DNA from: Minisyncoccota bacterium
GTDB lineage: Bacteria > Patescibacteriota > Minisyncoccia > Phycocordibacterales > CSBR16-193
DNA: 62,917 bases
Direction of reading: 5' to 3'
NCBI GenBank assembly: GCA_040880645.1
Contig: JBBDHZ010000266.1
Location: 1 to 62,917 of the forward strand
Shown here: positions 1-16,674 of the stretch, piece after piece
Layout: each line of letters begins with the position of its first letter
How positions within the stretch are numbered: position 1 is the first letter of the stretch
Notes under the pieces: generated by a model
Database searches by the model: none
Seen by the model: the letters and a program-made list of their open reading frames with translations, nothing else
Told to the model about the DNA's origin: nothing
Program-made: the position numbers and the translations under genes

Positions 1-238
1 GGGAAAGGCGGAACATGAGGGCCAGAGAACCCGACCAGAACCGCTCGATGACTTCACAGCGACAACTAAGAATTGTCTGGCCGCACCAACTCTTCAGCGA
101 GATTTGGCCCCGATCGTTCTTGGTGTAGCCGGTTACATGGCGACCGACGACAGACGCTCCGAGGGCTGAAAAATCTTGGCCTTGATGTTCGATAACGCCG
201 ACTTCGACCTGTCCGTTACGAATGCAGTGCGTGTGCAT
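1..238 (-). CDS. hypothetical protein, partial (runs off left edge)
   Basis: ATG at 238 on the minus strand (MHTHCIRNGQVEVGV...). I translated it by hand and it stays open to position 1. It is absent from the ORF track because no stop lies in the window. A motif copy sits 74 nt upstream. Confidence 0.35.
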   Translation of the reverse strand, partial: MHTHCIRNGQVEVGVIEHQGQDFSALGASVVGRHVTGYTKNDRGQISLKSWCGQTILSCRCEVIERFWSGSLALMFRLS

Positions 239-312
239 TGCTTTTCTCTGCTGGAGGAGCGTCAAGACTCGGCAAAGCACAGTGCCTCGCTCACAAGTCT
301 CGACTGTTCCCT

Positions 313-323
313 TAGCAGGTGCC
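313..323 (-). repeat. copy of iterated GGCACCYGCTA motif
   Basis: Plus-strand text TAGCAGGTGCC. It lies 74 nt upstream of the minus-strand ATG at 238. Confidence 0.85.
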
Positions 324-430
324 TCGGCCGTCGATGAGTCGATCTCCAAGACGCCTATGTCGTCGTTTGCGCACACAAAAAGCCCGCCCCGAAGGGCAGG
401 CTCATCAGTCGTGATGTTTCAGATTGCCAG

Positions 431-664
431 CTAGAGAACGCTGCCGAGTTCGCTTTTCTTCATCGTTTCCAGAGCTTCGGCGGCCAGCAATTGTTCGTTC
501 GTTAACAACGTCGGCCCCGAGCTTTCTGCGTCGGCGACCTCAAGGGCGTGCGCCAAGCTTTGCAGGCCCTCGATCGCCTTGTAGTAGCTGTCACGGATCT
601 CGTTGGCCTGCTCAGCCTCCATGCTGCTGAAAATTTCTCGCAGTTGCTTTTCGTTGGTGGTCAT
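431..664 (-). CDS. hypothetical small helical protein
   Basis: 77-aa ORF. Its start overlaps the stop of the upstream ORF by 4 nt (661..664), which suggests translational coupling. Confidence 0.55.
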   Translation of the reverse strand: MTTNEKQLREIFSSMEAEQANEIRDSYYKAIEGLQSLAHALEVADAESSGPTLLTNEQLLAAEALETMKKSELGSVL

Positions 665-945
665 CTTGCGGTCTCCGAAGGAAGCTTTGTCTGTCCGAGA
701 TGCTGTTGGATTTCCGTCAAGCGATCACAAATCATCCGAAGCGATCCGACGTGACCCCAGTTCAACCAATGAACATCTTCACCAGGTGCGGGAAGATCCC
801 ACAACTGCGCCCCGATCTCGTCCAGCAGTTGTACCGCCGTGGCGTGCAGTTGGGTGTACTCATCTTCGATCAGTTTTCGGTTTTCGTTGTTGTCGTTGGT
901 CATCTGTTCGATTCCGTTGTGTGGGATAAAAGCTCGACCAGTCAT
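661..945 (-). CDS. hypothetical protein
   Basis: 94-aa ORF with an alternative ATG at 903. A motif copy lies 55 nt upstream of 945. Confidence 0.55.
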   Translation of the reverse strand: MTGRAFIPHNGIEQMTNDNNENRKLIEDEYTQLHATAVQLLDEIGAQLWDLPAPGEDVHWLNWGHVGSLRMICDRLTEIQQHLGQTKLPSETAR

Positions 946-1000
946 CTTACCATCAGGATCTTCGTCGGCCTTCGCCAGCGAGTTTATCCCGCTCTTTGAC

Positions 1001-1011
1001 TAGCGGGTGCC
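1001..1011 (-). repeat. copy of iterated GGCACCYGCTA motif
   Basis: Plus-strand TAGCGGGTGCC, located between the 1088..1393 and 661..945 genes. Confidence 0.85.
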
Positions 1012-1087
1012 TCGTGACCAAAGTGGGAAGAACCGCATTGGTCACAAAAAGCAGCCGATCAAACCCGCAATTCCTGCTTTGATCTTA

Positions 1088-1393
1088 TCAGAGCGGAATC
1101 ACGGGATATTCCGCCTCTTCCCCACGCTGAAGCTTGTCGATGGCATCGAAAGCCGCCATCTCTCGTTCGAGCGTCATTCGTGTCAGGCTGCTGATCTTGC
1201 TGGCGAAGGTGATGCTGACTGGGTGGTTGAGAAGGTCATCCCCCGACACGCCGCTTTGCCAAAGAGCAAGTAAGTGGCGGTGAAAACAGCCGACGACCGC
1301 CACAAGATTACACGCATCTTGCACCTCGTTGGCGTCTGCGGCTGCTTTCTGAACGGCTTCGTCGCTGCCATTGGCGGTTGCGGTTCTGGTCAT
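1088..1393 (-). CDS. hypothetical protein
   Basis: Internal ATG at 1393 (MTRTATANG...) is preceded by GGAGAAACAGT. The longer track ORF (to 1522) would read through a motif copy. Confidence 0.55.
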   Translation of the reverse strand: MTRTATANGSDEAVQKAAADANEVQDACNLVAVVGCFHRHLLALWQSGVSGDDLLNHPVSITFASKISSLTRMTLEREMAAFDAIDKLQRGEEAEYPVIPL

Positions 1394-1439
1394 ACTGTTT
1401 CTCCTGAAAATGGGAAGGTGTACTGATCGTTCCCTTCGA

Positions 1440-1450
1440 TAGCGGGTGCC
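1440..1450 (-). repeat. copy of iterated GGCACCYGCTA motif
   Basis: Plus-strand TAGCGGGTGCC, 46 nt upstream of the ATG at 1393. Confidence 0.85.
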
Positions 1451-1533
1451 TGAAAACCGCACCCCACAACTGCTATTGGCAATCGCTGAAGAGACGATTA
1501 TCACGCTTCCTGACAGGGACACTGTCTAGAACG

Positions 1534-2025
1534 TCATTTGCTAGACACTTGACGCTTCAGATGCAGGAACACGGCTCTGACAACCTCGCCAGATTCCAAA
1601 TTTTGTAATCCGCTGGGGAAGCACTCCCTGACGGCAGCGTCGACCTGCTGATCCGAAACACTCAGGCCGAGGCAAGCCAGCGAGTCGATCAGATCGGCGA
1701 ACTCGTTGCTCCGCTTCGGTTTGGGCTTCGGCTTAGTCAGTCGCTTGGTCGGCTGATGTGGTAGCGGGTGCCTGCTCGTGTAGAACAAAACAGGCTCGCC
1801 GTTGATTCCGCAGTTCCGCCGTTTCACTTCCAGACAACTCTTTTGCGCCTCTTCATCAAAAAATGGACGGCGATTGGCCACCGAGTAGACAGGCGGCGGG
1901 AAAATGCCCTCGCCCATCAACTGGTAAAAACGAGCACGGCTGAGTCCGACCATGCGAGCCATTTCGCTCACGGAGACGGCGGATTTGGACGGTAATTGAA
2001 CAGTCATTTGACAGAAATCCTCCAA
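1534..2025 (-). CDS. excisionase/MerR-type helix-turn-helix DNA-binding protein
   Basis: The N-terminus VSVSEMARMVGLSRARFYQLMGEGIFPPP fits the HTH_17/AlpA-excisionase pattern. A basic KPKPKPKR linker follows. Confidence 0.6.
   Translation of the reverse strand: MEDFCQMTVQLPSKSAVSVSEMARMVGLSRARFYQLMGEGIFPPPVYSVANRRPFFDEEAQKSCLEVKRRNCGINGEPVLFYTSRHPLPHQPTKRLTKPKPKPKRSNEFADLIDSLACLGLSVSDQQVDAAVRECFPSGLQNLESGEVVRAVFLHLKRQVSSK
1762..1772 (-). repeat. copy of iterated GGCACCYGCTA motif (intragenic)
   Basis: Plus-strand TAGCGGGTGCC inside ORF 1534..2025, read there as ..RHPLP.. Confidence 0.8.
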
Positions 2026-2055
2026 GAATTAGACGGTTGGTTGCTGATGTCGCAC

Positions 2056-2066
2056 TAGCGGGTGCC
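2056..2066 (-). repeat. copy of iterated GGCACCYGCTA motif
   Basis: Plus-strand TAGCGGGTGCC, 30 nt upstream of the start at 2025. Confidence 0.85.
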
Positions 2067-2100
2067 TCTCCGTCGAATTGAGACAGGAACGGAACGACAA

Positions 2101-3048
2101 TTAGTCAGCGATCGGACAGGAATTCGACAGGTGTTCGTGTCCCGAAACGGTCAAACATCGCCGTCCTTGGTCGTCCTTGCAAATCAAGCCGACTCGAACC
2201 AAAAAGCTCTCGATGACCTCGCTGACCGTTCGTGACGGCAGGCCGATCCGACTGGCAATCACGTTCAATCGGGTCGGTCCCTCGGAAACAATCCGAAGGT
2301 ACTGTTGCTCGCTTGGACCAAGCCCGAGTTCATCGAGTTGCTCCAACTCACATGCTTTTAGCAGGTGCCCTTTGGTGATCGTGTTCTCGCCTTGGCTGCG
2401 ACAGCAACGGAAGCAACTCTGCAAGAGCCGAAGCCCCAAGCGTGGCGTTCCACGAGATCGTTTGGCAATCTCTGGAAGGATCTCTTCGTGAACATCCCAG
2501 CACAGGGATCGCACACGATTGAGCAATAATGTCGTCAACTCCTTGTCGCTGTAATAGCCGAAACGCAGCAACATGCAGCGATCCGATAACGGTCTCGGAA
2601 CGAGGTATTCCTCCGTCGTGCTGAGCAGCAACGTGAAGTCGGACAGTGGCAAACTTTGCGGCGACTTCCGTTTTCCTGACAAGACGATCTTGCCTTGGTC
2701 GAGAGCAAGGAGCAGCGTGACGAAGACATCTTTTGGTGCGGCGTGAACTTCGTCGATGTACACGCAATCCCTGTCTTGAGCACTGAGTAAGAGTGCAAAC
2801 AGGTCGCTTGTGTTGGTCAACGTGCTGCCGAGTACCTCATGCGGGTCGCTCGCCATCTCGGCACAAATCGTGTGGCAAAGTTGGGTCTTGCCGACTCCGG
2901 GAGGACCAACCATCAGCGAGTTTGGAAACTTTTGCCCGTCCATCTGGCACGCATCGAGCGCCACACGGACTTGGTTCAGCACTGATGACTGACCGACCAT
3001 TCGGCTCAGTGATGTTGGTCGCACGTCATTCACGTCGTGATTCGACAT
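2101..3048 (-). CDS. RuvB-like AAA+ ATPase (Holliday-junction helicase family paralog)
   Basis: RPTSLSRMVGQ, Walker A GPPGVGKTQL, Walker B VYIDEVHA, RSRGTPRLGLRLL and a C-terminal winged-helix region (GLGPSEQQYL) are colinear with RuvB. Confidence 0.85.
   Translation of the reverse strand: MSNHDVNDVRPTSLSRMVGQSSVLNQVRVALDACQMDGQKFPNSLMVGPPGVGKTQLCHTICAEMASDPHEVLGSTLTNTSDLFALLLSAQDRDCVYIDEVHAAPKDVFVTLLLALDQGKIVLSGKRKSPQSLPLSDFTLLLSTTEEYLVPRPLSDRCMLLRFGYYSDKELTTLLLNRVRSLCWDVHEEILPEIAKRSRGTPRLGLRLLQSCFRCCRSQGENTITKGHLLKACELEQLDELGLGPSEQQYLRIVSEGPTRLNVIASRIGLPSRTVSEVIESFLVRVGLICKDDQGRRCLTVSGHEHLSNSCPIAD
2359..2369 (-). repeat. copy of iterated GGCACCYGCTA motif (intragenic)
   Basis: Plus-strand TAGCAGGTGCC inside the RuvB-like gene. 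Confidence 0.8.
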
Positions 3049-3089
3049 TGTTTACTCCTGTTGCAAAAGTTGGACTGGTGTTGCTTGCC

Positions 3090-3100
3090 TAGCAGGTGCC
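3090..3100 (-). repeat. copy of iterated GGCACCYGCTA motif
   Basis: Plus-strand TAGCAGGTGCC, 41 nt upstream of the RuvB-like start at 3048. Confidence 0.85.
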
Positions 3101-3105
3101 TCACT

Positions 3106-3726
3106 TCAGCAAGCGGGCTCGATCTCTTCGAAGCCAAGTGCGTCGAAAGCGGCTCGAAGGTCGTCTTCATCGGGCCAGCCGCCTTGGTCGTCGGTGTTGT
3201 CCAGAGCATTGGGGCGGTTGTCGCTTAGCCATTGGCAAACGTCGTCGCTCCAGTCGTCTGGCAACTCGTATTCGTCGGCGATGCCAGCAGCGGCAAGGGG
3301 GATGTTCTCGTAGGTGGCTTTGAGGTCGAGTTCGCCGTAGTGGTGCTCGCAAAGGATTGGGTATATTGCCATGCGTTCGAGCAAGCCGTGAAGAACCTTG
3401 AACGCTTGCGTGATTTCGCCATCACGATAGACTCGCACCGACCATCCCCGAATCCACCCGACCGCCCAGTGAGAATGATCCTCTTCGATCACATCAGAAT
3501 CGTCTGTGTCGGCGTCGATGAACGGCTTCAATGCCTCGGCGATTTGCTGTGCATTGCTTTGATCGAGCAAGCCCGACTCACGATTGTGTGAGTAATAGAT
3601 GCACCAGTCTTCAGGGCGGTCGAGTTCACTTGCTCGAAACCAGGCGAACGAGTCCCATCGTTGCCAGTTGCCCGCCGCTTCCGTTGCCGCATCATCCAGT
3701 TCGAGTTCGCCAAGTCGATTACTCAT
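3106..3726 (-). CDS. highly acidic hypothetical protein (possible anti-restriction / DNA-mimic type)
   Basis: 206-aa ORF that is visibly rich in D/E (DADTDDSDVIEEDHSHW, ELPDDWSDD, DNTDDQGGWPDEDD). It sits between the RuvB-like and ArdC genes. Confidence 0.65.
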   Translation of the reverse strand: MSNRLGELELDDAATEAAGNWQRWDSFAWFRASELDRPEDWCIYYSHNRESGLLDQSNAQQIAEALKPFIDADTDDSDVIEEDHSHWAVGWIRGWSVRVYRDGEITQAFKVLHGLLERMAIYPILCEHHYGELDLKATYENIPLAAAGIADEYELPDDWSDDVCQWLSDNRPNALDNTDDQGGWPDEDDLRAAFDALGFEEIEPAC

Positions 3727-3769
3727 TTTGTCTCTCCGTCAGAGGTTGAGTGGTTGTCTGTCTGACGGA

Positions 3770-4069
3770 CTAGCAGGTGCCTTTGTTGTTATTGGGCAAA
3801 ACTCGAAAAACGTAGAAAGCAACCAATGCCATTACATCCGTCGTGGGACAGTCGCTCTGCATGAGGCGCCGCCAAGCATCGCCAGTCGCTTCGTTGTTGC
3901 GTCCCATACGCCGCCAAATTTGAAAAGCCATCAGTGCATGGTCGGCGCAATCGAACATCTCGCCGGACATCGTGCGAGCAGAAAGCTGTTCAGAATTACG
4001 GATGAGGGCCAGCATCGGTCGAAGGGCATCACGTTCATCGGCGGTGATCTTTCCGGAGAGGTGGTGCAT
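3770..4069 (-). CDS. hypothetical protein
   Basis: 99-aa ORF in the same-strand cluster, ending ..KGTC-TAG within the motif. Confidence 0.55.
   Translation of the reverse strand: MHHLSGKITADERDALRPMLALIRNSEQLSARTMSGEMFDCADHALMAFQIWRRMGRNNEATGDAWRRLMQSDCPTTDVMALVAFYVFRVLPNNNKGTC
3771..3781 (-). repeat. copy of iterated GGCACCYGCTA motif
   Basis: Plus-strand TAGCAGGTGCC, 44 nt upstream of the start at 3726. The TAG stop of ORF 3770..4069 overlaps its end. Confidence 0.85.
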
Positions 4070-4078
4070 AGCTAACTT

Positions 4079-4264
4079 TCATTTTTGTAGGAAAGTTGGA
4101 ATAAAAACCGAGTGAGCCGCCCGCTGGCGATCCACACCGAAGCTTCGAGGCTTCGCTTTTGCCAGTGGGGGTCGGCGGTTGCTGGCCAGTCCAAGCCGAC
4201 GATCCTGCTGGTTGCGGAGCGTCAAAGCCCGAGCGTCGATGAGATCACGCTTCGGGCGGCTCAA
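4079..4264 (-). CDS. small basic hypothetical protein
   Basis: 61-aa ORF that fills the gap between neighbouring genes. A motif copy lies 28 nt upstream of its ATG. Confidence 0.4.
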   Translation of the reverse strand: MSRPKRDLIDARALTLRNQQDRRLGLASNRRPPLAKAKPRSFGVDRQRAAHSVFIPTFLQK

Positions 4265-4291
4265 CTCGGTCGTCCCGATCAGGACACTTTC

Positions 4292-5197
4292 CTAGCGGGT
4301 GCCTACTTCGTCGGCGACGGGCTGCTCTTCCTGCGTGCGGACGTGCGACATAAGGAATTCAGCCGCTTTCGATGCCGTCGCCGAAGCTTTGAAAACAAAC
4401 TTCGTGTCAGCCTTCATTGCTTTGAGCCAATGGTCGATGTAGGAGGCGCAACTTTCGACGTTCTGGCTGGTCGGCAGACCCAGTTCAGCAAGGAGAAAAC
4501 TCGCTCCCAAGTCAGCCACCATTTCACCAAGGGCGTAGGCGTTTTCGACCTTGGTGCGGTCGAATCCGATCCGCTTTTCTGACCAGTGGACAAGCTCGTG
4601 CATCAGCGTCTCGTAATACGCTTCACTCGACTCGAACTGTCCACGGCGTGGCATCTGGATGCGGTCTTGGGTCGGCGAATAAAACGCCCGATTTCCACCG
4701 TGCCGAAGATCGACACCAGTGGCTTTAACCAACCGCTCAGCCGCTTCGAGCCGCTCAAAGATTGTGTCGGTTGGCTGCGTATTGCCGATGCGGTATTGGT
4801 CAAGCCCCGTCGTTTGCTCAACCGAGAAAACCGAGAATTGACGCATAAGAAAGAAGCTGAGGTCAGCAGTTTCGCCATTATCGAGCTTTTCCTCCCGCTT
4901 TATCGGCTTAAACAGCACAATCTTGACCGCCTTCTCGCCCTTTTTCACGCTCGCTCCAGCGTCCTTGATCTGCTTGAACGTGCCGAACCATTTGCTTTCG
5001 TATTGGTGCTTGATTGCGAGGACTTGCAAAAGCAGTTGATTGATCCCGTTGTACGGCTTGCCGGTGCTGAGCGAGGTCGCCAGCCCAAGGGCGTTCGGGT
5101 CGGTGGCCCACGGTTTTCGCCATGCGGGCAAGCCGCCTTGCTCGAGCGACTCGATGATGGTCTGGGTGATGGACTCACGGATCTGTGTAGCGTTCAT
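4292..5197 (-). CDS. ardC: ArdC-like antirestriction protein (N-terminal ssDNA-binding DUF1738 + C-terminal zincin metalloprotease)
   Basis: LPAWRKPW, GKPYNGINQLLL, KKGEKA and FSVFSVEQ in the N-terminal half. HELVHWS...YALGEMVADLGASFL..YIDHWL in the C-terminal half. Confidence 0.9.
   Translation of the reverse strand: MNATQIRESITQTIIESLEQGGLPAWRKPWATDPNALGLATSLSTGKPYNGINQLLLQVLAIKHQYESKWFGTFKQIKDAGASVKKGEKAVKIVLFKPIKREEKLDNGETADLSFFLMRQFSVFSVEQTTGLDQYRIGNTQPTDTIFERLEAAERLVKATGVDLRHGGNRAFYSPTQDRIQMPRRGQFESSEAYYETLMHELVHWSEKRIGFDRTKVENAYALGEMVADLGASFLLAELGLPTSQNVESCASYIDHWLKAMKADTKFVFKASATASKAAEFLMSHVRTQEEQPVADEVGTR
4293..4303 (-). repeat. copy of iterated GGCACCYGCTA motif
   Basis: Plus-strand TAGCGGGTGCC. 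The ArdC-like ORF ends ..GTR-TAG inside it. Confidence 0.85.
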
Positions 5198-5237
5198 GTC
5201 GTCGTCTCCATTTGAGGAAGTGATGAGAACGACTGAC

Positions 5238-5248
5238 TAGCGGGTGCC
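5238..5248 (-). repeat. copy of iterated GGCACCYGCTA motif
   Basis: Plus-strand TAGCGGGTGCC, 40 nt upstream of the ArdC start at 5197. Confidence 0.85.
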
Positions 5249-5368
5249 TCTTTGGGAATGCATGTGGAAAGAAACGACGGCTAGGATCGCTGGGAAGTTC
5301 CAAGAAAAGGTGGAACGATCACAGCAGGATCTTCGCAAGTGAATGACAGGAGCGCTGCCACAGGCAGA

Positions 5369-5379
5369 GGCACCTGCTA
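5369..5379 (+). repeat. inverted copy of iterated GGCACCYGCTA motif
   Basis: Plus-strand text GGCACCTGCTA. This is the only copy in the opposite orientation, ~120 bp from the copy at 5238. Confidence 0.8.
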
Positions 5380-5767
5380 GTTGAACAGTCATCACCAGCG
5401 ATGCCACGAAGAATCCTAGGCGAGTAGTGGCATAGCCGTGAGATTTCGACAACCCTGCGCAGTGTGTGTAGCGAGTTGGTGATGGCTTTCTTTGCTGACC
5501 AGCAATTTCCAAGGGATATGGTTGGGGGCGAAAAGGTAGCGCACCCGTCCGTTCGCCACCTTTTCTCGCTAGCGTGATTCCCATAATTTCGGGCGCAAAC
5601 CATTCAAACGAAGAGGACGACATGGCCGAACGAACGAAGAAAGAGCTTTTTCATGCGGCGGCAGGAAGGGAGCAGGATTGTTGTCTTATTTGCAAAAACC
5701 TAGGTTCCTTTTGCCGACGTGATCAGGCGGATCAGTCGGACTGGGTTAAAGTAATTGAAAAGTTGAG

Positions 5768-5796
5768 ACCGCCCGTGACCACAAATCACGGGCGGT
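5768..5796 (-). terminator. hairpin terminator candidate
   Basis: ACCGCCCGTGA-7 nt-TCACGGGCGGT gives an 11-bp perfect stem overlapping the stop of gene 5786..6001. T-rich tracts follow on both strands. Confidence 0.55.
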
Positions 5797-6001
5797 TGTC
5801 TTTTGCCCATTGCTCGGTCAGAGCATTCAGGCTGTCCTTGCTGAAATACCGACGTTTTCCGAGCTGGATCTCTGGGGCAGGCAATCGGCCAGCAGTGATT
5901 TCCCAATGCAGTTTGCGAACAGAAACCCCGACTTGCCGGGCTGCCTCTGAGACGTTGAAAAGTTTAAGAACGGTTCTCCGTTCAGTTGCTGTAACGTTCA
6001 T
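5786..6001 (-). CDS. AlpA/excisionase-type HTH DNA-binding protein
   Basis: ATG at 6001 is preceded by GGAGG. The sequence LFNVSEAARQVGVSVRKLHWEITAGRLPAPEIQLGKRRYF fits HTH_17. Confidence 0.7.
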   Translation of the reverse strand: MNVTATERRTVLKLFNVSEAARQVGVSVRKLHWEITAGRLPAPEIQLGKRRYFSKDSLNALTEQWAKDNRP

Positions 6002-6082
6002 GTTTTTTCCTCCGAGAAAAATGTTCTCCTTGTAGTAGTGTTGTCGCCGCAACGTTTGCGGCGGTTCTTGCGGGAAAAGCTT

Positions 6083-6658
6083 CTAGAAACCTTCGGCTCG
6101 CCAGTCGAAGCTCTTGATGCTTCCGACGCTGATCGGCTCCGGCCCGTCGATACTACGGTAAACGGCCAGCACCGCATCCATCATTCGGCGATCCAGCACG
6201 ATGTCGCCGTTGGCAATCGCTTCTTCTATCCTGTGAAGCTCTACATGCCCACGTAGCAGCAGTTCTCGGCTTTCTTCAAGCTGATCCTCCAACCTGGGCC
6301 GAATCGCCCAGCCGTAAGCGAAATCTGGCTTCCACCAGCCTTTTCCATGGCTGACAAATTCACCTGCTTCCAATTGTTCTCGTGACAGGTAGGTCTGCTT
6401 CTGGTCGTCGTAATGTGGTGCGAGACGAACTTGCTTTGCTGTCTGCTTGGTGACGGTTCGTGGCCTAGCGTAGCCATGTTCGTCATTTTGTCTCCACTCG
6501 TAGACAACCGTGTCGTCCAGTTTCGAAAGCAGTTGCTTGTCATTCTGGTACCGTGCTTCAGCCTCTTTGGCCCGGCGTCTTGCATCGGCAAGTTCTTTTT
6601 GGGGCGTGGTTGCGGGGTCGTATCCCACTAATCGTTGTGCAATTTCCAGTAAATCCAT
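6083..6658 (-). CDS. hypothetical protein
   Basis: ATG at 6658 (MDLLEIAQRL...) is preceded by AAGGAG. The longer track ORF overlaps the divergent EEP gene. Confidence 0.6.
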   Translation of the reverse strand: MDLLEIAQRLVGYDPATTPQKELADARRRAKEAEARYQNDKQLLSKLDDTVVYEWRQNDEHGYARPRTVTKQTAKQVRLAPHYDDQKQTYLSREQLEAGEFVSHGKGWWKPDFAYGWAIRPRLEDQLEESRELLLRGHVELHRIEEAIANGDIVLDRRMMDAVLAVYRSIDGPEPISVGSIKSFDWRAEGF

Positions 6659-6845
6659 TTTCTTTCTCCTTGGAGTTCGGGTTCTCTGGTAAATGAGTGT
6701 CGCTGCCGCAATTTCCGTAGCGGATTTTTCATTTTCCGAATAAATCTTTCTCTCCGGTTCGAAGACGGCTTGGCGGCTCGATGGACTGAGGGAACTCAGC
6801 GTGCGACAATGGCCGACCCCAACACCACGAGAAGGAAGGTCAGCC

Positions 6846-7709
6846 ATGACTGTTTCACGTCGCCAATTCTGCACTGCACTCGGTGCCGCTGGACTCTCAG
6901 CGGTGGCGCATCCAGGCTTTGCCGAAAATCACGAGTCGCAACCACTTCGAGTGATTGCCTACAATGTCTACGCCTGCACTGGTTGGCCGAAAGACCGACC
7001 GCTTGCGAAGAATGCAGTTGAGAAAGGCCAGATGGCCAAGCGGCTTGCGATGGAACTCGCCCTCTACGATCCCGACATCGTTAACTTCTCGGAATCGCCG
7101 AGCGAAGCGGTCGCCAAAGAGGTCGCCGAACATCTCGGCATGAATCACGTTCGTTTCCCAAGTGGCGGGAACTGGCCGGGAACACTGCTGAGCCGTTTTG
7201 AGATTACTGATTCGCAGAACGTTCGCCTTTGGAATGAACGTCCCAAAGACCTGTTTACTCGCCATTGGGGACGTGGGACGATCAAGTTGCCGAGTGGCGA
7301 GTCGCTGATCGTCCACTCTGCTCATCTGTATCCGGGTGCTGATCCAGCAATCCGATTGAAGGAGATAAAGGCAATGCTGGTGGCGATGAAGGATGACCTC
7401 GATTCTGGTCATTCCATGTTGCTGATCGGCGACCTCAACCATGGACCTGACAGCGAAGAATACAAACTTTGGATCGACGCTGGCTGGATCGACACGTTCG
7501 CCAAGGTTGGGAAAGGGAAGGGGTTGACGATCAAGGCCGACAATCCTGAGTGGCGGATTGATTACGTGATGGCGGCTGGCCCAATTGCGAAACGTGTCGT
7601 CGAATCGAGACCGCTTTTCGAGGGAGCGTTCCGTCTGAACATCGCTGACCCGAAGGCGTTTGCTCTGAGCGATCATCTTCCACAATTGGCGGTCTTCGAA
7701 TCCGAGTGA
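6846..7709 (+). CDS. secreted endonuclease/exonuclease/phosphatase (EEP) family protein
   Basis: Tat-like signal MTVSRRQFCTALGAAGLSAVA. EEP motifs are LRVIAYNV, DIVNFSE, LIGDLNH and SDHLPQLAVF. Confidence 0.85.
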   Translation: MTVSRRQFCTALGAAGLSAVAHPGFAENHESQPLRVIAYNVYACTGWPKDRPLAKNAVEKGQMAKRLAMELALYDPDIVNFSESPSEAVAKEVAEHLGMNHVRFPSGGNWPGTLLSRFEITDSQNVRLWNERPKDLFTRHWGRGTIKLPSGESLIVHSAHLYPGADPAIRLKEIKAMLVAMKDDLDSGHSMLLIGDLNHGPDSEEYKLWIDAGWIDTFAKVGKGKGLTIKADNPEWRIDYVMAAGPIAKRVVESRPLFEGAFRLNIADPKAFALSDHLPQLAVFESE

Positions 7710-7807
7710 GTCAGCTATCGATGTGGCGGCTGGGGTCGCTGGGCAGTTCCCCGGCACAATGAGAAACACCCGCTGCCCAGTGCCAGCACCTTCAACGGAG
7801 AAACCAC

Positions 7808-8014
7808 ATGGACGAGCGAACTAAGAAACAACTTTTCGATGCGACGGCAGGGCTTCTGCCTGTCGTCAGCTACGATGGCGCACAATACAGCTTCACCGGC
7901 AAGACGGGTGAGCGAGTTGACACTGGAGTGGCTGTCAGAGAATACGAACGGACAAGTGGATCACTTCCCCAGCGCATTTGGGTCGATGTTAAGGGCAATG
8001 TCTACTCCGAATGA
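7808..8014 (+). CDS. small hypothetical protein
   Basis: 68-aa ORF. Its first ~15 codons and upstream ~25 nt are repeated imperfectly at 5597-5665. Confidence 0.45.
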   Translation: MDERTKKQLFDATAGLLPVVSYDGAQYSFTGKTGERVDTGVAVREYERTSGSLPQRIWVDVKGNVYSE

Positions 8015-8059
8015 GCGTCCCAAGCCTCCACGCAGACACCAAGTCTTGAGGTTTCCCCG

Positions 8060-9190
8060 ATGAAATACCTCGTATCGCTCCTGCTGCTCACCATCGCTCC
8101 ACAGATCACAGTGGCAGCGGACATCACCCGCATCTGGCTCACCCATAAGTCGAACGATCCCAGCAAGATCGTCGTCAACTGGATGACCGACGAACCCGGC
8201 GATTCAGTCGTTCAGTTCGGCTTGTCCTCCGAATACAGCGAGACGGTGCGGGTCGATGAAGATGTGACGCTGCACCACGTCGAGATCCCACTGGAGCACC
8301 GAGATGCCGTTTACCACTATTCGGTCAGCACCGGCGACCAGCGGTCAGAAGACGCCACGTTCAAGGCTTATCCGACCGATGTGCTTCGTGCGGCTGTTGT
8401 GGCCGACTGGCAGGGCAAGCCCGATCTGTCAGCGATCATGGACGACGATATTCACCTGCTGCTAACAGCAGGCGACAACATCGCCAACTTCTGGCAGAAG
8501 TGCGGCGAAGGCAAAAAGGATTGTGTGAAGCCCTACGCCGATTTGATCGACGCTTACCCGAAGCTCTTCCGCTCCACGCCATTCATGCCCGTATTGGGCA
8601 ACCATGATCGAGAGATCCTGCCTCGTGGAGATGAACCACCTGCTGAGCCCGTTTACGACGTGGATGCAACGGCCTTCCGCCGATTCTTCGAGCTTCCTGG
8701 CGACGAGTGGAAGTGGCACTTTGATCTGCCTAAGTTCGATCTGCGGTTTGTTGGTCTGGATTTCAACCACATCTCAGATTTTGGGACGACGTGGCAAACT
8801 TGTCACGCATTCGACGAAGGCTCGGAGCAGTTCCGTTGGTATGAAAAGCTGATGGAGAAACCGCCCAGCTTTGTGATCACGCTTTACAACGAACGGAACA
8901 GCAATATTCGCAACCGGGCCGGCGGAAAGTGGCACAACCTGTTCCGCAAAGGGACGTGTTGCATTACTGGCTTTGGCTACTTTGCCCAGCGAGCCGAAGT
9001 GGATGGCTTCCCGTATTACAACACTGCTTTGAACGGCAGAGGGGACCAGTACCCCGATCCGCAGTCAAAGTTTCTGGCTGGTGAGGACAGCTATGTTCTG
9101 CTGACGGTCGAGAAAGAGGGGAAGATGGCGGTCGAGACCAAGAGCCTCGATGGCGGGGTGCTGGATCGGCGGGAATATGATGGGCGGTGA
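8060..9190 (+). CDS. secreted metallophosphoesterase (purple-acid-phosphatase-like)
   Basis: Signal peptide present. The N-terminal region resembles a PAP N-domain. Motifs are GDNIANF and VLGNHD. Confidence 0.85.
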
Positions 9191-10493: not shown

Positions 10494-11942
10494 ATGGAAG
10501 TTCTGCTCGGATTGATTATCGGCGGTGGCGTCATGTTCGTGTACATGACGAGATCATTCGGTCCTGGACTTAGCCCCCGTCACAGCAATCAAGCTTCTCC
10601 GGCAAGCGTGACCTCACTGCTTCAAGCACACTTCCACTACGTTCCGATTCACGAACTTTCCATATCAGAACGAAGATTTCCGTTTCGGATGCGGGCAGAC
10701 CTTCAGGGAACCATCGATAAGCTCATGGGCGAGGAGTTCACGGTCCACCAGTTTTCAGGTGTTCAAAAAGAATATGCTTTCGGCGGCGTCACGATTTCGG
10801 ACTGCATGATCGAAAGCGAGCAGAATCCTGCCGTCTCGGTCCCTCCTGAATACGAAGAACTGGACATTGGAGAAGACCAGCCGTTGCGAGTTCTAAAGGA
10901 GGGCTTGTGGTTGCTGGAATGGAAGGAGCTTCACTTCGCCGTCTTGTTGTCCCCGTGCGGAATGCACGGCGAAATCACCGGAATGCAGATTCAAGTGGCC
11001 ACACCTAATTCTGCCGAAGGAAGGCAGGTTACGGAGATGTTCTTCAGCAAGCTGGAAGAAGCGGTCTCGAAGGCACAATCGTATCGAGGAAAAATCCTCT
11101 CCTTGGAGCAAACTGAGCACTCCTTTTCGGGACAATCAACAGGCATCACAGTCCACAAGCTGCGACAAGTCGAGAGAGAACAAGTCATCCTTCCCGAGCC
11201 GACGCTTGCCTTGCTGGAGCGAAATGTCGTTCAGTTCGTGAAGCAGCGCCCACGTTTGCGGCAGATCGGAATGTCCACAAAGAAGGGGTTGCTCTTTTAC
11301 GGTCCTCCCGGAACCGGAAAGACACACACGATCCACTTTCTCGCAAAGGCACTGGAAGGCCACACGACGCTGCTGATTTCTGCCGAACAGGTGGGGCTGC
11401 TAAGCGAATACATGACGCTCGCCCGCTTGCTGCAACCGAGCATCGTCGTGATGGAGGACGTTGATTTGATCGCCAGAGAACGGTCGCAGATGGATAGTCC
11501 GTGCGAAGAAGTGCTCCTGAACAAGCTGCTGAACGAAATGGACGGGCTGAAGGAAGAAGCCGATATCCTATTCATCCTGACCACGAACCGACCCGAAGCA
11601 CTCGAAGCAGCCTTGGCATCACGACCAGGACGTGTTGATCAAGCGATTGAGTTTCCTTTGCCTGACGAGGACGGTCGCAGGAAACTGGTTTCCCTTTACG
11701 CACCCAACATCATTTTGGACGACGGTGTCACCGCTGAGATCGTGAAAAGAACCGATGGGGTGAGTGCGTCGTTTATTAAAGAACTGATGCGGCGGATTGC
11801 CCAATTCTCCATCGAACGCAACGGCGACGAGCAGATCACACATCAAGACGTGGATGGAGCGCTGGATGAGATGTTGTTCAAAGGCGGGTCTCTGAACCTG
11901 AGCATTTTGGGTGCTAGCGAACGGGTGGCAGACGGTGGTTGA
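10494..11942 (+). CDS. classical AAA-family ATPase with N-terminal TM segment
   Basis: Walker A GLLFYGPPGTGKTH and Walker B IVVMEDVDLI. The second region of homology is ILTTNRPEALEAALASRPGRVD. The N-terminus LLGLIIGGGVMFVY is hydrophobic. Confidence 0.9.
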   Translation: MEVLLGLIIGGGVMFVYMTRSFGPGLSPRHSNQASPASVTSLLQAHFHYVPIHELSISERRFPFRMRADLQGTIDKLMGEEFTVHQFSGVQKEYAFGGVTISDCMIESEQNPAVSVPPEYEELDIGEDQPLRVLKEGLWLLEWKELHFAVLLSPCGMHGEITGMQIQVATPNSAEGRQVTEMFFSKLEEAVSKAQSYRGKILSLEQTEHSFSGQSTGITVHKLRQVEREQVILPEPTLALLERNVVQFVKQRPRLRQIGMSTKKGLLFYGPPGTGKTHTIHFLAKALEGHTTLLISAEQVGLLSEYMTLARLLQPSIVVMEDVDLIARERSQMDSPCEEVLLNKLLNEMDGLKEEADILFILTTNRPEALEAALASRPGRVDQAIEFPLPDEDGRRKLVSLYAPNIILDDGVTAEIVKRTDGVSASFIKELMRRIAQFSIERNGDEQITHQDVDGALDEMLFKGGSLNLSILGASERVADGG

Positions 11943-15166: not shown

Positions 15167-15541
15167 ATGTCGGAGAACCCGTACAAACCAACGGTAGGCG
15201 GTAATCGTTCGTCACCTAGCCGAATGCGTCTCCCACCCGCCGTTATCGGTGTGATTGTCGCAGAGGGGGTTTGGGGTCTGGCGTGGCTCGCCCTGATTGT
15301 GCAGTGGCTCACAGATATGACTCTTCCCGACGTGTTCGAAATCGCCTGCATGATGATAGCTAACCCTATTGCAGTCGGGGGCTGGGCGTTAATTTGGGGA
15401 GACAACGGGCCACCTTACCAGTGGCTCGAAAGCACTCTCGTCAATCTGGTTGCGACTTTTCTGCTGTGGGGGCTGGTCGGGTTCCTGATTGGTTCGGGGG
15501 TGGCGAAATTAGGGAACGGCAGACGGCAGCACCAAGAATGA
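15167..15541 (+). CDS. small membrane protein
   Basis: ATG at 15167 after GGAGAG. There are three hydrophobic segments. The stop overlaps the UvdE ATG (ATGA at 15538-15541). Confidence 0.5.
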   Translation: MSENPYKPTVGGNRSSPSRMRLPPAVIGVIVAEGVWGLAWLALIVQWLTDMTLPDVFEIACMMIANPIAVGGWALIWGDNGPPYQWLESTLVNLVATFLLWGLVGFLIGSGVAKLGNGRRQHQE

Positions 15542-16674
15542 CAAACATCCGCCTCGGCCTTTGCTGCATCTTTCTGGAACAACCGATCAAGTTCCGAAAC
15601 ACGACCGTCAAGGTAATCAGTGGCATGGCTCGAAATGCAGCTCTCACCAAGCTGTCGGGGCTCTGCCTGGCCAATGCGGAGGCGTTGCAGGCAGCACTGC
15701 AATTCTGTGCCGACAACGAAATCGGCTGCTTCCGCATCAACAGTCAAATCCTGCCGGTGAAAACGCACGTCGAATGCGGCTACGACGTGTCCGGTCTTCC
15801 TGAAGGTGAAGAGATCATGCGACGGTTCAAAGCGTGTGGTCAATTCGCCCGAGATCACGACATCCGAACGTCCTTTCATCCCGACCAGTTTGTCGTGCTG
15901 AACTCGCCTCGCCCTGATGTGGTGGACCGATCCGTCGAGGAACTGGAATATCAGTCGCTGGTCGCTGAATGGGTTGGGGCGGATGTTGTGAACATCCACG
16001 GAGGTGGGGCTTACGGGAACAAGACAGATGCTCTGTCCCGTCTGGCTCGGAACCTCAACCGCCTTTCTGACCGTGCGAGAAGCCGATTGACTCTCGAAAA
16101 CGACGATACGACTTACATGCCGTCCGACCTGCTGCCACTGTGTCGATCAGAGGGTGTTCCGCTTGTCTACGACGTTCATCATCACCGCTGCAATCAGGAC
16201 GAACTTTCAGTTGAAGAGGCGACAGCCGAGGCAATTGCCACTTGGGATCGGGAACCGATGTTCCACATTTCCAGTCCGGTTGAAGGCTGGCAAGGGCCCA
16301 ATCCGAAACGCCACCACGACTTCATCGACGTGCGGGACTTTCCTGAATGCTGGGACGAGCTGACACTGACCGTCGAAGTCGAAGCCAAGGCTAAAGAAGT
16401 CGCTGTCCTGAAGCTGATGAAGCAACTGAGCGAACGGTGGTTCGTTTACGTCCTGCGGTGTTCCGATGGCTCGCTCTACACCGGCATCGCCAAGGATGTG
16501 GAACGGCGACTGGAACAGCACAACGCAGGAACCGCTTCACGTTACACCCGCAGTCGATTGCCAGTCACTTTGGTCTACTGGGAAGAGCAGCGCCACCAGA
16601 GCAAGGCGTTGAAGCGAGAGTTGGCGATTAAAGCTCTGTCACGGAAAGGGAAGGAGGGGCTGATTGGGAAGTGA
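15538..16674 (+). CDS. uvdE: UV-damage endonuclease UvdE fused to a C-terminal GIY-YIG nuclease domain
   Basis: UvdE motifs are RLGLCCIF, FRINSQILP, HPDQFVVLNSP, NIHGGGAYGNK, LTLENDD and YDVHHH. The C-terminus WFVYVLRCSDGSLYTGIAKDVERRLEQHN...RYT is of the GIY-YIG (YhbQ-like) type. Confidence 0.9.
   Translation: MTNIRLGLCCIFLEQPIKFRNTTVKVISGMARNAALTKLSGLCLANAEALQAALQFCADNEIGCFRINSQILPVKTHVECGYDVSGLPEGEEIMRRFKACGQFARDHDIRTSFHPDQFVVLNSPRPDVVDRSVEELEYQSLVAEWVGADVVNIHGGGAYGNKTDALSRLARNLNRLSDRARSRLTLENDDTTYMPSDLLPLCRSEGVPLVYDVHHHRCNQDELSVEEATAEAIATWDREPMFHISSPVEGWQGPNPKRHHDFIDVRDFPECWDELTLTVEVEAKAKEVAVLKLMKQLSERWFVYVLRCSDGSLYTGIAKDVERRLEQHNAGTASRYTRSRLPVTLVYWEEQRHQSKALKRELAIKALSRKGKEGLIGK

Follow-up and report, generated by a model that had tools for sequence, protein, structure and literature searches.

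Introduction

Short asymmetric repeats that accompany many genes of one mobile genome are best described in mycobacteriophages. The stoperators of Cluster A phages, read by repressors such as L5 gp71, are asymmetric 13-bp sites that occur 20-35 times in a genome and follow the direction of transcription; their repressor is a monomeric two-domain protein, the sites occupy short intergenic gaps, often touching stop codons, and the consensus of each lineage co-evolves with its reader (PMC9283540). The SAS repeats of Cluster K phages are 13-bp asymmetric sequences that precede many non-structural genes in one orientation and are absent from the host genome; they lie 3-8 bp from the start codon, contain the Shine-Dalgarno (SD) sequence and sometimes include the upstream stop codon, and their reader is not known (PMC3203893). 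Here we describe an asymmetric motif of about 13 bp that recurs through an integrated element at the start of contig JBBDHZ010000266.1, of which all 62,917 bases analysed are referred to as the window. Its pattern appears closest to that of the Cluster A stoperators. The reading that we favour from the arrangement of its copies, with a probability of roughly 0.57, is that the motif is a compact, element-specific per-gene promoter of an element family, on which an operator function may be superimposed. The window was compared with 92 loci (L numbers), collected mostly around relatives of the RuvB-like gene of the element.

Results

Copies of the motif in the window

Ten exact matches to TAGCRGGTGCC lie on the plus strand of the window and a single inverted copy lies on the minus strand (Table 1). 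A first-pass annotation of the same DNA had reported these eleven copies, and an exact-match scan of the whole window agrees with it, finding none outside 313..5379. The annotation also held that their number exceeds chance, and it does: eleven copies within 5.1 kb compare with 0.02 expected, and 0 of 100 shuffles reach 11. With up to two mismatches there are 34 matches in the whole window against 21.6 expected, 23 of them non-exact and in the rest of the window. The excess over expectation is the 11 exact copies, and the two-mismatch matches elsewhere are only background.

All genes in 1..6100 are on the minus strand, where the motif reads (A)GGCACCYGCTA(G). Only CTAG within it is self-complementary, and the motif as a whole is non-palindromic. 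One position is polymorphic, with C in six copies and T in five, so whatever reads the motif tolerates either base. The copies are direct repeats scattered at intervals of 131-945 nt, one per gene. Seven of the same-strand copies are followed, 40-75 nt further on, by a start codon with a GGAG SD sequence. The first-pass annotation had counted eight, at 28-74 nt; the 28-nt case was the TTG open reading frame (ORF) 4079..4264 (61 amino acids, aa), which is probably not a gene, the stretch being a conserved structured non-coding RNA (ncRNA) described below. The reported overlaps with two stop codons are there, ArdC ending in ...GTA GGC ACC CGC TAG and the 99-aa ORF in ...AAA GGC ACC TGC TAG.

Two copies are intragenic, as was first noted. 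The site of the copy within the RuvB-like gene is matched at 17 of 17 positions in L092 and has no match in L008, L012 or L073; the copy is partly explained by the conserved peptide, and its function is uncertain. The copy in the AlpA-like gene falls in the linker of the protein, where the element's own variant is found in L073, L092 and L076 and where the peptide shifts with the variant (SRHPL, QRTPAM, SRDTCY). Intragenic copies of relatives stand at L073 9712, L092 1098 and 1633 and L076 1443, the RuvB-like one being less regularly present than that in the AlpA-like linker. The linker copy may act as an internal promoter from which the integrase gene of relatives is read.

The site orthologous to the copy upstream of ArdC holds the element's own variant in L009, L012, L014, L073 and L091. 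In relatives, the counterpart of the inverted copy precedes a divergent 165-aa HEAT_2 gene, which is absent from the window, where tblastn finds no trace of it. The non-coding stretch that follows the inverted copy on the plus strand (5380..5785) contains a hairpin, GCGAAAAGGTAGCGC...CGCCACCTTTTCTCGC, similar to GAAAAGGTAGCGCaccgtTGCGCTACCTTTTC in the RuvB-like leader of L037.

Table 1. Motif copies, genes and other features of the element in the window; for motif copies, the strand is that on which the coding-strand form is read
Feature	Position	Strand	Remarks
Gene running off window start	1..237	-	N-terminal 79 aa inside window
Motif copy	313..323	-	~57 nt downstream of intrinsic terminator; 75 nt upstream of gene running off window
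Intrinsic terminator	380..403	-	10-bp GC-rich stem and T-run; after 77-aa gene
Motif copy	1001..1011	-	55 or 98 nt upstream of 94-aa gene, by start chosen (945 or 903, uncertain)
Motif copy	1440..1450	-	47 nt upstream of 100-aa gene
AlpA-like protein	1534..2007	-	excisionase/MerR-type winged helix-turn-helix, K/P-rich linker, small three-helix C-terminal domain
Intragenic motif copy, AlpA-like linker	1762..1772	-	peptide S-R-H-P-L
Motif copy	2056..2066	-	48 nt upstream of AlpA-like ATG (2007)
RuvB-like AAA+ protein	2101..3048	-	lid and winged-helix domains; element-family marker
Intragenic motif copy, RuvB-like gene	2359..2369	-	codons K-G-H-L-L
Motif copy	3090..3100	-	41 nt upstream of RuvB-like gene; position kept in L001, L008, L009, L012, L073, L091
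206-aa protein	3106..3726	-	precedes RuvB-like gene in 22 related loci
Motif copy	3771..3781	-	overlaps 99-aa ORF stop codon; 44 nt upstream of 206-aa gene
Structured ncRNA, ~190 nt	4096..4286	-	directly after ArdC; 5' hairpin GTCC..GGAC, long-range helices, 3' helix then U-run
ArdC	4292..5197	-	ArdcN and zincin metallopeptidase
Motif copy	4293..4303	-	overlaps ArdC stop codon; ncRNA begins 6 nt downstream
Motif copy, GGCACCCGCTA on minus strand	5238..5248	-	40 nt upstream of ArdC ATG; divergent pair with 5369 copy
Inverted motif copy	5369..5379	+	points rightwards; ~400 nt non-coding DNA, then bidirectional terminator
Small HTH_17 (excisionase-type) protein	5786..6001	-	no motif upstream; followed by bidirectional terminator 5767..5797

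Variants of the motif in related elements

The first-pass annotation took the motif for a selected, orientation-specific element tied to gene starts. A motif search of related elements bears this out: at least 35 related Planctomycetota loci, from genomes and metagenomes and reached by way of their RuvB-like and AlpA-like genes, carry an over-represented short block at the same positions, co-oriented with the genes, each in its own variant. The feature is real, strongly selected and family-wide. The earlier remark that the motif is not a described one also stands, as a literature string search returned nothing relevant and Rfam gave no match to the motif region or the ncRNA (E<=1, 1..8200).

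The variants are lineage-specific (for example GGCACCCCCTAG, AGACACCCGCTTG and AATGAAACACCCCT) and number at least 18, with 10-26 near-identical copies per element. L001, L008, L009, L014 and L015 share AGGCACCTGCTA; further variants are GAGGCACCCCCTAGT (Gimesia, L012) and AATGAAACACCCCT (L019, L072). Variants assigned to single loci are GGCACCTACTC (L091), AGACACCCGCTTG (L073, 26 copies in 16 kb), TGAGACACC(C/T)ACTTG (L080), GACGCACACCnGCTAAG (L092), GCGGATACCCTCCAAG (L038), CGACGGCAnGT (L004) and AACTGATGTC (L037); TTGTACC-type variants occur in L047, L067, L077, L034 and others. Most variants have nothing in common but a pyrimidine-A step in the core. Start codons lie 47-53 nt from this core A in the window's group and 23-57 nt from it in other loci. 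Upstream of the block no position is conserved, and downstream the segment +20..+35 is depleted of G (9% G), as for an unstructured leader.

Where genes diverge, the motif is inverted along with them. In L019 three back-to-back pairs are separated by only 21-26 nt, and in L072, L091, L009 and L012 the separation is 36-52 nt; the two sites are so close that other upstream promoter elements cannot fit. Of 194 unique motif copies, 9 have a terminator-like hairpin with a T-run no more than 72 nt upstream, compared with 0.5% of random positions. In the window, a strong terminator (403..380) precedes the motif copy at 313, where transcription therefore has to restart. The term 'operon', by which the region was first described, is thus imprecise, since terminators followed by fresh motif copies indicate several transcription units.

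A structured RNA and the ArdC leaders

The ncRNA that follows ArdC lacks an ORF and comprises a 5' hairpin (GTCCTGATCGGGAC), two conserved blocks (GACTGGCCAGC and AAGCGAAG) and a closing helix with a U-run. A covariance model identifies seven full copies, in divergent elements. Its structure was derived from these same seven sequences, and the covariation figures lean in its favour: 92% of cells are paired, and there are 13 double-change pairs, where shuffles give 5.4±1.6 and sliding the structure gives 6 or fewer. The first hairpin of the ncRNA follows the core A at exactly 15 nt in 7 of 7 elements, every one of which has a motif variant of its own.

The ArdC leader (5198..5237 in the window) contains an SD-sequestering hairpin that begins just after the motif. 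Such hairpins are also present in L009, L012, L014, L073, L091, L020, L034, L043 and L027, where the architecture is kept and the sequence changes, which suggests that translation of ArdC is regulated; the arms differ yet still pair (GGTGCAG/CTGCACC, GGTTCAG/CTGAACC, GGTGCC/GGCACC, CCTGTCGTT/AACGACAAGG). Because these hairpins start just 3' of the block and retain their complementarity despite sequence change, the DNA there is transcribed. The 5-6 nt between the block and the first RNA structure are unconstrained. Structured leaders are not universal, as the mean leader-folding z-score is only -0.3 and just 16-28% of leaders have a strong hairpin.

The motif as a putative promoter

These observations favour initiation by RNA polymerase at the motif. 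As the ncRNA hairpin and the ArdC leader structures begin just 3' of the block, the start site would lie about 10-15 nt downstream of the core A, and with this placement the block would cover the -10 or extended -10 region of a promoter that has no -35 element. The core promoter would then be one asymmetric block of about 13 bp requiring no -35 partner, and its copies would give nearly every gene, and one ncRNA, a transcript of its own. Initiation some 10-15 nt past the invariant pyrimidine-A step would give a G-poor leader of about 35-40 nt carrying the GGAG SD sequence. Since each lineage uses its own variant of the block, a specificity factor that co-evolves with it must exist; possible forms of it are a sigma-like factor, an activator and a repressor bound at the promoter.

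The motif does not fit the sigma-dependent promoter classes with which it was compared. No sigma-70-like promoter (-35 TTGACA and -10 TATAAT, 16-18 bp apart) is found in 1..8200, where 2.6 are expected, and nothing is conserved upstream of the motif or at a -10-like distance from it. The spacing of a sigma-54 promoter (-24 GG and -12 GC, 10 nt apart; TGGCAC-N5-TTGC) is absent, for GGCAC is present and the GC follows only 5 nt on (GGCACCYGC); many variants, unlike sigma-54 promoters, lack the GG (GACACC, AACACC, GTACC). An ECF-like -35/-10 arrangement was rejected as well: elements of the window's group have a weak CrTCA at +14..+18, but this leaves a spacing of about 10 nt where 16-17 nt would be needed, and the sequence lies inside transcribed hairpin arms.

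Several points weigh against a promoter. The start site is a prediction from sequence, and the motif fits no known -10, -35 or -24/-12 consensus. Most copies have no preceding terminator, and most genes could be reached by read-through from upstream. Two copies, at 1762 and 2359, are intragenic. Neither a sigma factor nor an RNA polymerase nor another plausible reader is found in the window or in the flanks of the relatives, and the DNA-binding parts of the only universally linked proteins, RuvB-like and AlpA-like, do not co-vary with the motif.

Candidate readers of the motif

The RuvB-like and AlpA-like proteins are the only ones that accompany the motif everywhere. The AlpA-like protein, whose start is most likely ATG 2007 rather than TTG 2025, is modelled as an excisionase/MerR-type winged helix-turn-helix (wHTH) joined by a disordered K/P-rich linker to a small, acidic bundle of three helices. 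This C-terminal bundle has no structural match and, in the model, is unlike a DNA-binding domain. The helix-turn-helix (HTH; …VSEMARMVGLSRARFYQL…) and its recognition helix are nearly identical across elements with unrelated motif variants, and the protein was rejected as the specificity determinant. HTH_17 was rejected as reader too, being present in few loci and having a recognition helix that differs between elements that share one motif. The first-pass annotation had proposed these two HTH proteins as binders, and both are poor candidates for reading its specificity. AlpA of P. aeruginosa does not serve as a model: it is an unrelated, Q-like antiterminator with a 6-bp AlpA-binding element (ABE) inside an ordinary promoter, and the architecture differs. 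In most loci the integrase start is preceded, at about 50 nt, by a palindrome, TGATAA-N8-TTATCA (L008 ~11490..11545; corresponding window region ~1460..1533); this is a likelier target of the AlpA-like HTH than the motif, or else may be an att or arm site.

A Cys-containing 137-aa family was discarded because it occurs in only 7 loci, and the ncRNA because inspection revealed no convincing complementarity to the motif. Searches of the window and of the genes of relatives gave no match to a sigma factor, an RNA polymerase, a NusG-like protein or any repressor family. A T7-like RNA polymerase gene was likewise not found, either in the window, where the left end of the element is cut off, or within 8-10 kb on the flanks of the examined loci, and none of the proteins that recur between loci is longer than about 320 aa. 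The motif may be read by a host factor, by a small and rapidly evolving protein that the searches missed, or by something unconventional. A speculative and rather improbable version of the last is a promoter class that does without a conventional sigma factor and whose reader works with the RuvB-like and AlpA-like proteins or is a nucleic-acid guide. If true, the lineage-specific 13-bp block without a -35 would define a transcription system private to a mobile element of bacteria, in which the RuvB-like protein might open promoters with the use of ATP.

The element in the window and its relatives

The minus-strand gene order of the element is HTH_17, ArdC, 99-aa ORF, 206-aa ORF, RuvB-like, AlpA-like, three small ORFs, terminator and the gene running off the window. 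On the plus strand, 6801..7709 encodes a 302-aa protein with a twin-arginine (TAT) signal and the SDHLP motif of endonuclease/exonuclease/phosphatase-like proteins, 80% identical to the product of a gene in L015. This gene occupies the DNA of the minus-strand ORF 6897..7769 (290 aa), which is a spurious shadow ORF, and because a real plus-strand gene stands there the right border of the element is near 6.1-6.8 kb. The integrase gene has been lost from the window's element, leaving a remnant (gtGATAATcgtctc...) between the AlpA-like stop codon and the motif copy at 1440. Further along, in host DNA and unrelated to the motif, 15394..16674 (+) encodes a 426-aa ORF with a UvdE UV-endonuclease domain and a C-terminal GIY-YIG nuclease domain.

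The RuvB-like protein has 1,959 matches at E<=1e-20, with Bremerella, Gimesia, Stieleria, Gemmatales and Fimbriiglobus among the named sources, and the AlpA-like protein has 1,914. The conserved core of related loci consists of these two genes and a XerC-type integrase gene, often with ArdC, the 206-aa protein and small plasmid-type genes; restriction-modification, TIR and RVT genes occur as cargo. Cultured strains with such elements include Bremerella sp. P1 (CP118164.1:3661180-3682115) and Gimesia chilikensis (VTSR01000032.1:291328-312281). Similar elements were not found in PLSDB (DNA and protein), GenBank phages (protein) or IMG/VR, and a literature search for planctomycete elements found no description of the family. 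It is thus an integrated, mobile element family of Planctomycetota, previously undescribed in the literature and in the phage, plasmid and viral collections searched. Some relatives (L073 935..3313, L014 541..2994) have a motif-less operon of HTH_17 and a Prim-Pol/D5_N/DUF5906 primase-helicase, which lends the elements the character of a P4-like satellite or of a replicative integrative element; in the window the HTH_17 gene is present and a primase is not.

Discussion

Of the roles that the first-pass annotation had listed, the per-gene promoter is the one we favour, perhaps with an operator superimposed. Translation coupling is disfavoured, as one copy would drive an ncRNA and the motif lies 40-50 nt from the starts, away from the SD sequence. 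Another reading takes the motif for an asymmetric operator like the stoperators: the element would encode a monomeric repressor that binds every copy and silences the element, blocking initiation and read-through according to orientation, as L5 gp71 does. Its appeal is the resemblance to the stoperator pattern, namely 13 bp, asymmetry, many copies, transcription-linked orientation, intergenic overlap with stop codons and lineage variants (PMC9283540). A roadblock would also explain the intragenic copies and those that have no upstream terminator more easily than initiation does, and the element encodes small wHTH proteins predicted to bind DNA as monomers. However, no homologue of the immunity repressor is found with Pfam, PHROGs or NCBIfam, the AlpA-like HTH is invariant across motif variants and HTH_17 is present in only a few elements. 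Moreover, the fixed distance to start codons, the 40-nt leaders, the pairs 21-26 nt apart and the copies after terminators would require initiation at the motif even if it were an operator. We therefore regard an operator alone as unlikely, though the promoter could itself carry the operator, and the two readings would then be compatible. It is still less probable that the site acts in RNA, within a long polycistronic transcript that a sequence-specific protein or RNase binds or cuts, setting the 5' ends of mature mRNAs and of the ncRNA. Strict coding-strand orientation, the fixed distance to downstream RNA structures and start codons, the conserved RNA structure that begins right after the motif and the lack of an upstream terminator at most copies all suit such a site, but divergent pairs 21-26 nt apart and copies after terminators would then have no promoter, no RNase-like or RNA-binding gene is conserved in the elements and no RNA family matches.

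The annotation's cassette junction is apt as a description, for homology blocks start exactly at motif copies (window 325, 1450, 3101, 3782 and 5249 against L014, L015, L008 and L012), beginning 0-3 nt from a copy in 10 of 12 cases. Compared with L014, the window alone has the module 1106..326 (94-aa gene, 77-aa gene and terminator) and the 99-aa ORF, while L014 has extra modules between the 206-aa and RuvB-like genes. Because homology blocks and gene gains and losses are bounded by motif copies, the unit of motif, leader and gene is the exchange module. A recombination site or hot spot that bounds exchangeable cassettes, in the manner of integron attC core sites, would account for these boundaries and for the XerC/IntI-like tyrosine recombinase found mid-array in relatives. 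As the function of the motif we hold this to be very improbable. The motif is asymmetric, with neither the inverted arms nor the hairpin potential of a tyrosine recombinase core or attC site, its orientation changes with that of the genes while its distance from start codons stays fixed, and the window has kept 11 perfect copies though its integrase gene is deleted. Boundaries at the edge of the motif are expected in any case, as it is the only conserved sequence between unrelated neighbours and 13-bp direct repeats favour deletions; exchange through such identical repeats is to be expected with no dedicated recombinase.

To our knowledge, almost nothing is known of the promoters and mobile elements of Planctomycetota. 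With the motif, cultured strains (Bremerella, Gimesia) offer a clearly delimited set of signals, which opens to testing what a compact promoter without a -35 looks like in this phylum, what reads it and how the specificity of a reader and of its dozens of sites shifts in concert. The motif further delimits a large family of integrative elements (~1,900 RuvB-like and AlpA-like homologues) with anti-restriction and defence cargo and a new structured RNA, and could supply orthogonal promoter parts for planctomycete genetics.

Among known repeats, integron attC sites and tyrosine-recombinase cores do not match the motif, from which the required inverted arms or imperfect palindrome are absent, nor do iterons and ParB or KorB operators, which are tandem origin clusters or palindromic 13-16-mers, whereas the copies here are dispersed and non-palindromic. 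Unlike the SAS repeats, the motif lies 40-55 nt upstream of start codons (core A to start 47-53 nt in the window's group), is separate from a downstream GGAG and also precedes an ncRNA. With the stoperators it shares its 13-bp asymmetric form, its many copies and their orientation with transcription. It differs from them in that no gp71-like repressor, with an HTH and a stoperator domain that tracks the site, is found here, in its fixed distance of 40-50 nt from starts with a leader after each copy, and in the host phylum and element type; it is, besides, the sole promoter-like element, occurring also in back-to-back pairs and after terminators. Conjugative elements have master-regulator boxes, such as those of AcaCD/SetCD in IncC/SXT and the ArdK-type repeats in the R388 leading region, and the motif resembles these as an element-specific sequence before many operons, ardC-type leading-region genes included. 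Those boxes are longer, partly palindromic and placed upstream of ordinary -35/-10 promoters once per operon, whereas the asymmetric 13-mer appears to be the whole promoter and stands before nearly every gene. Per-gene promoters with a dedicated polymerase or sigma factor are known from T7-type phages (17-23 bp), T4 late genes (TATAAATA) and the UCS boxes of yeast linear killer plasmids. Their sequences are unrelated to the motif and, unlike for the phage promoters, no RNA polymerase or sigma-like gene is found in the window or in the 10-kb flanks of relatives. In common with those promoters, the motif would be a single compact block by the start site with no -35, kept in near-identical copies within an element and in distinct variants between lineages.

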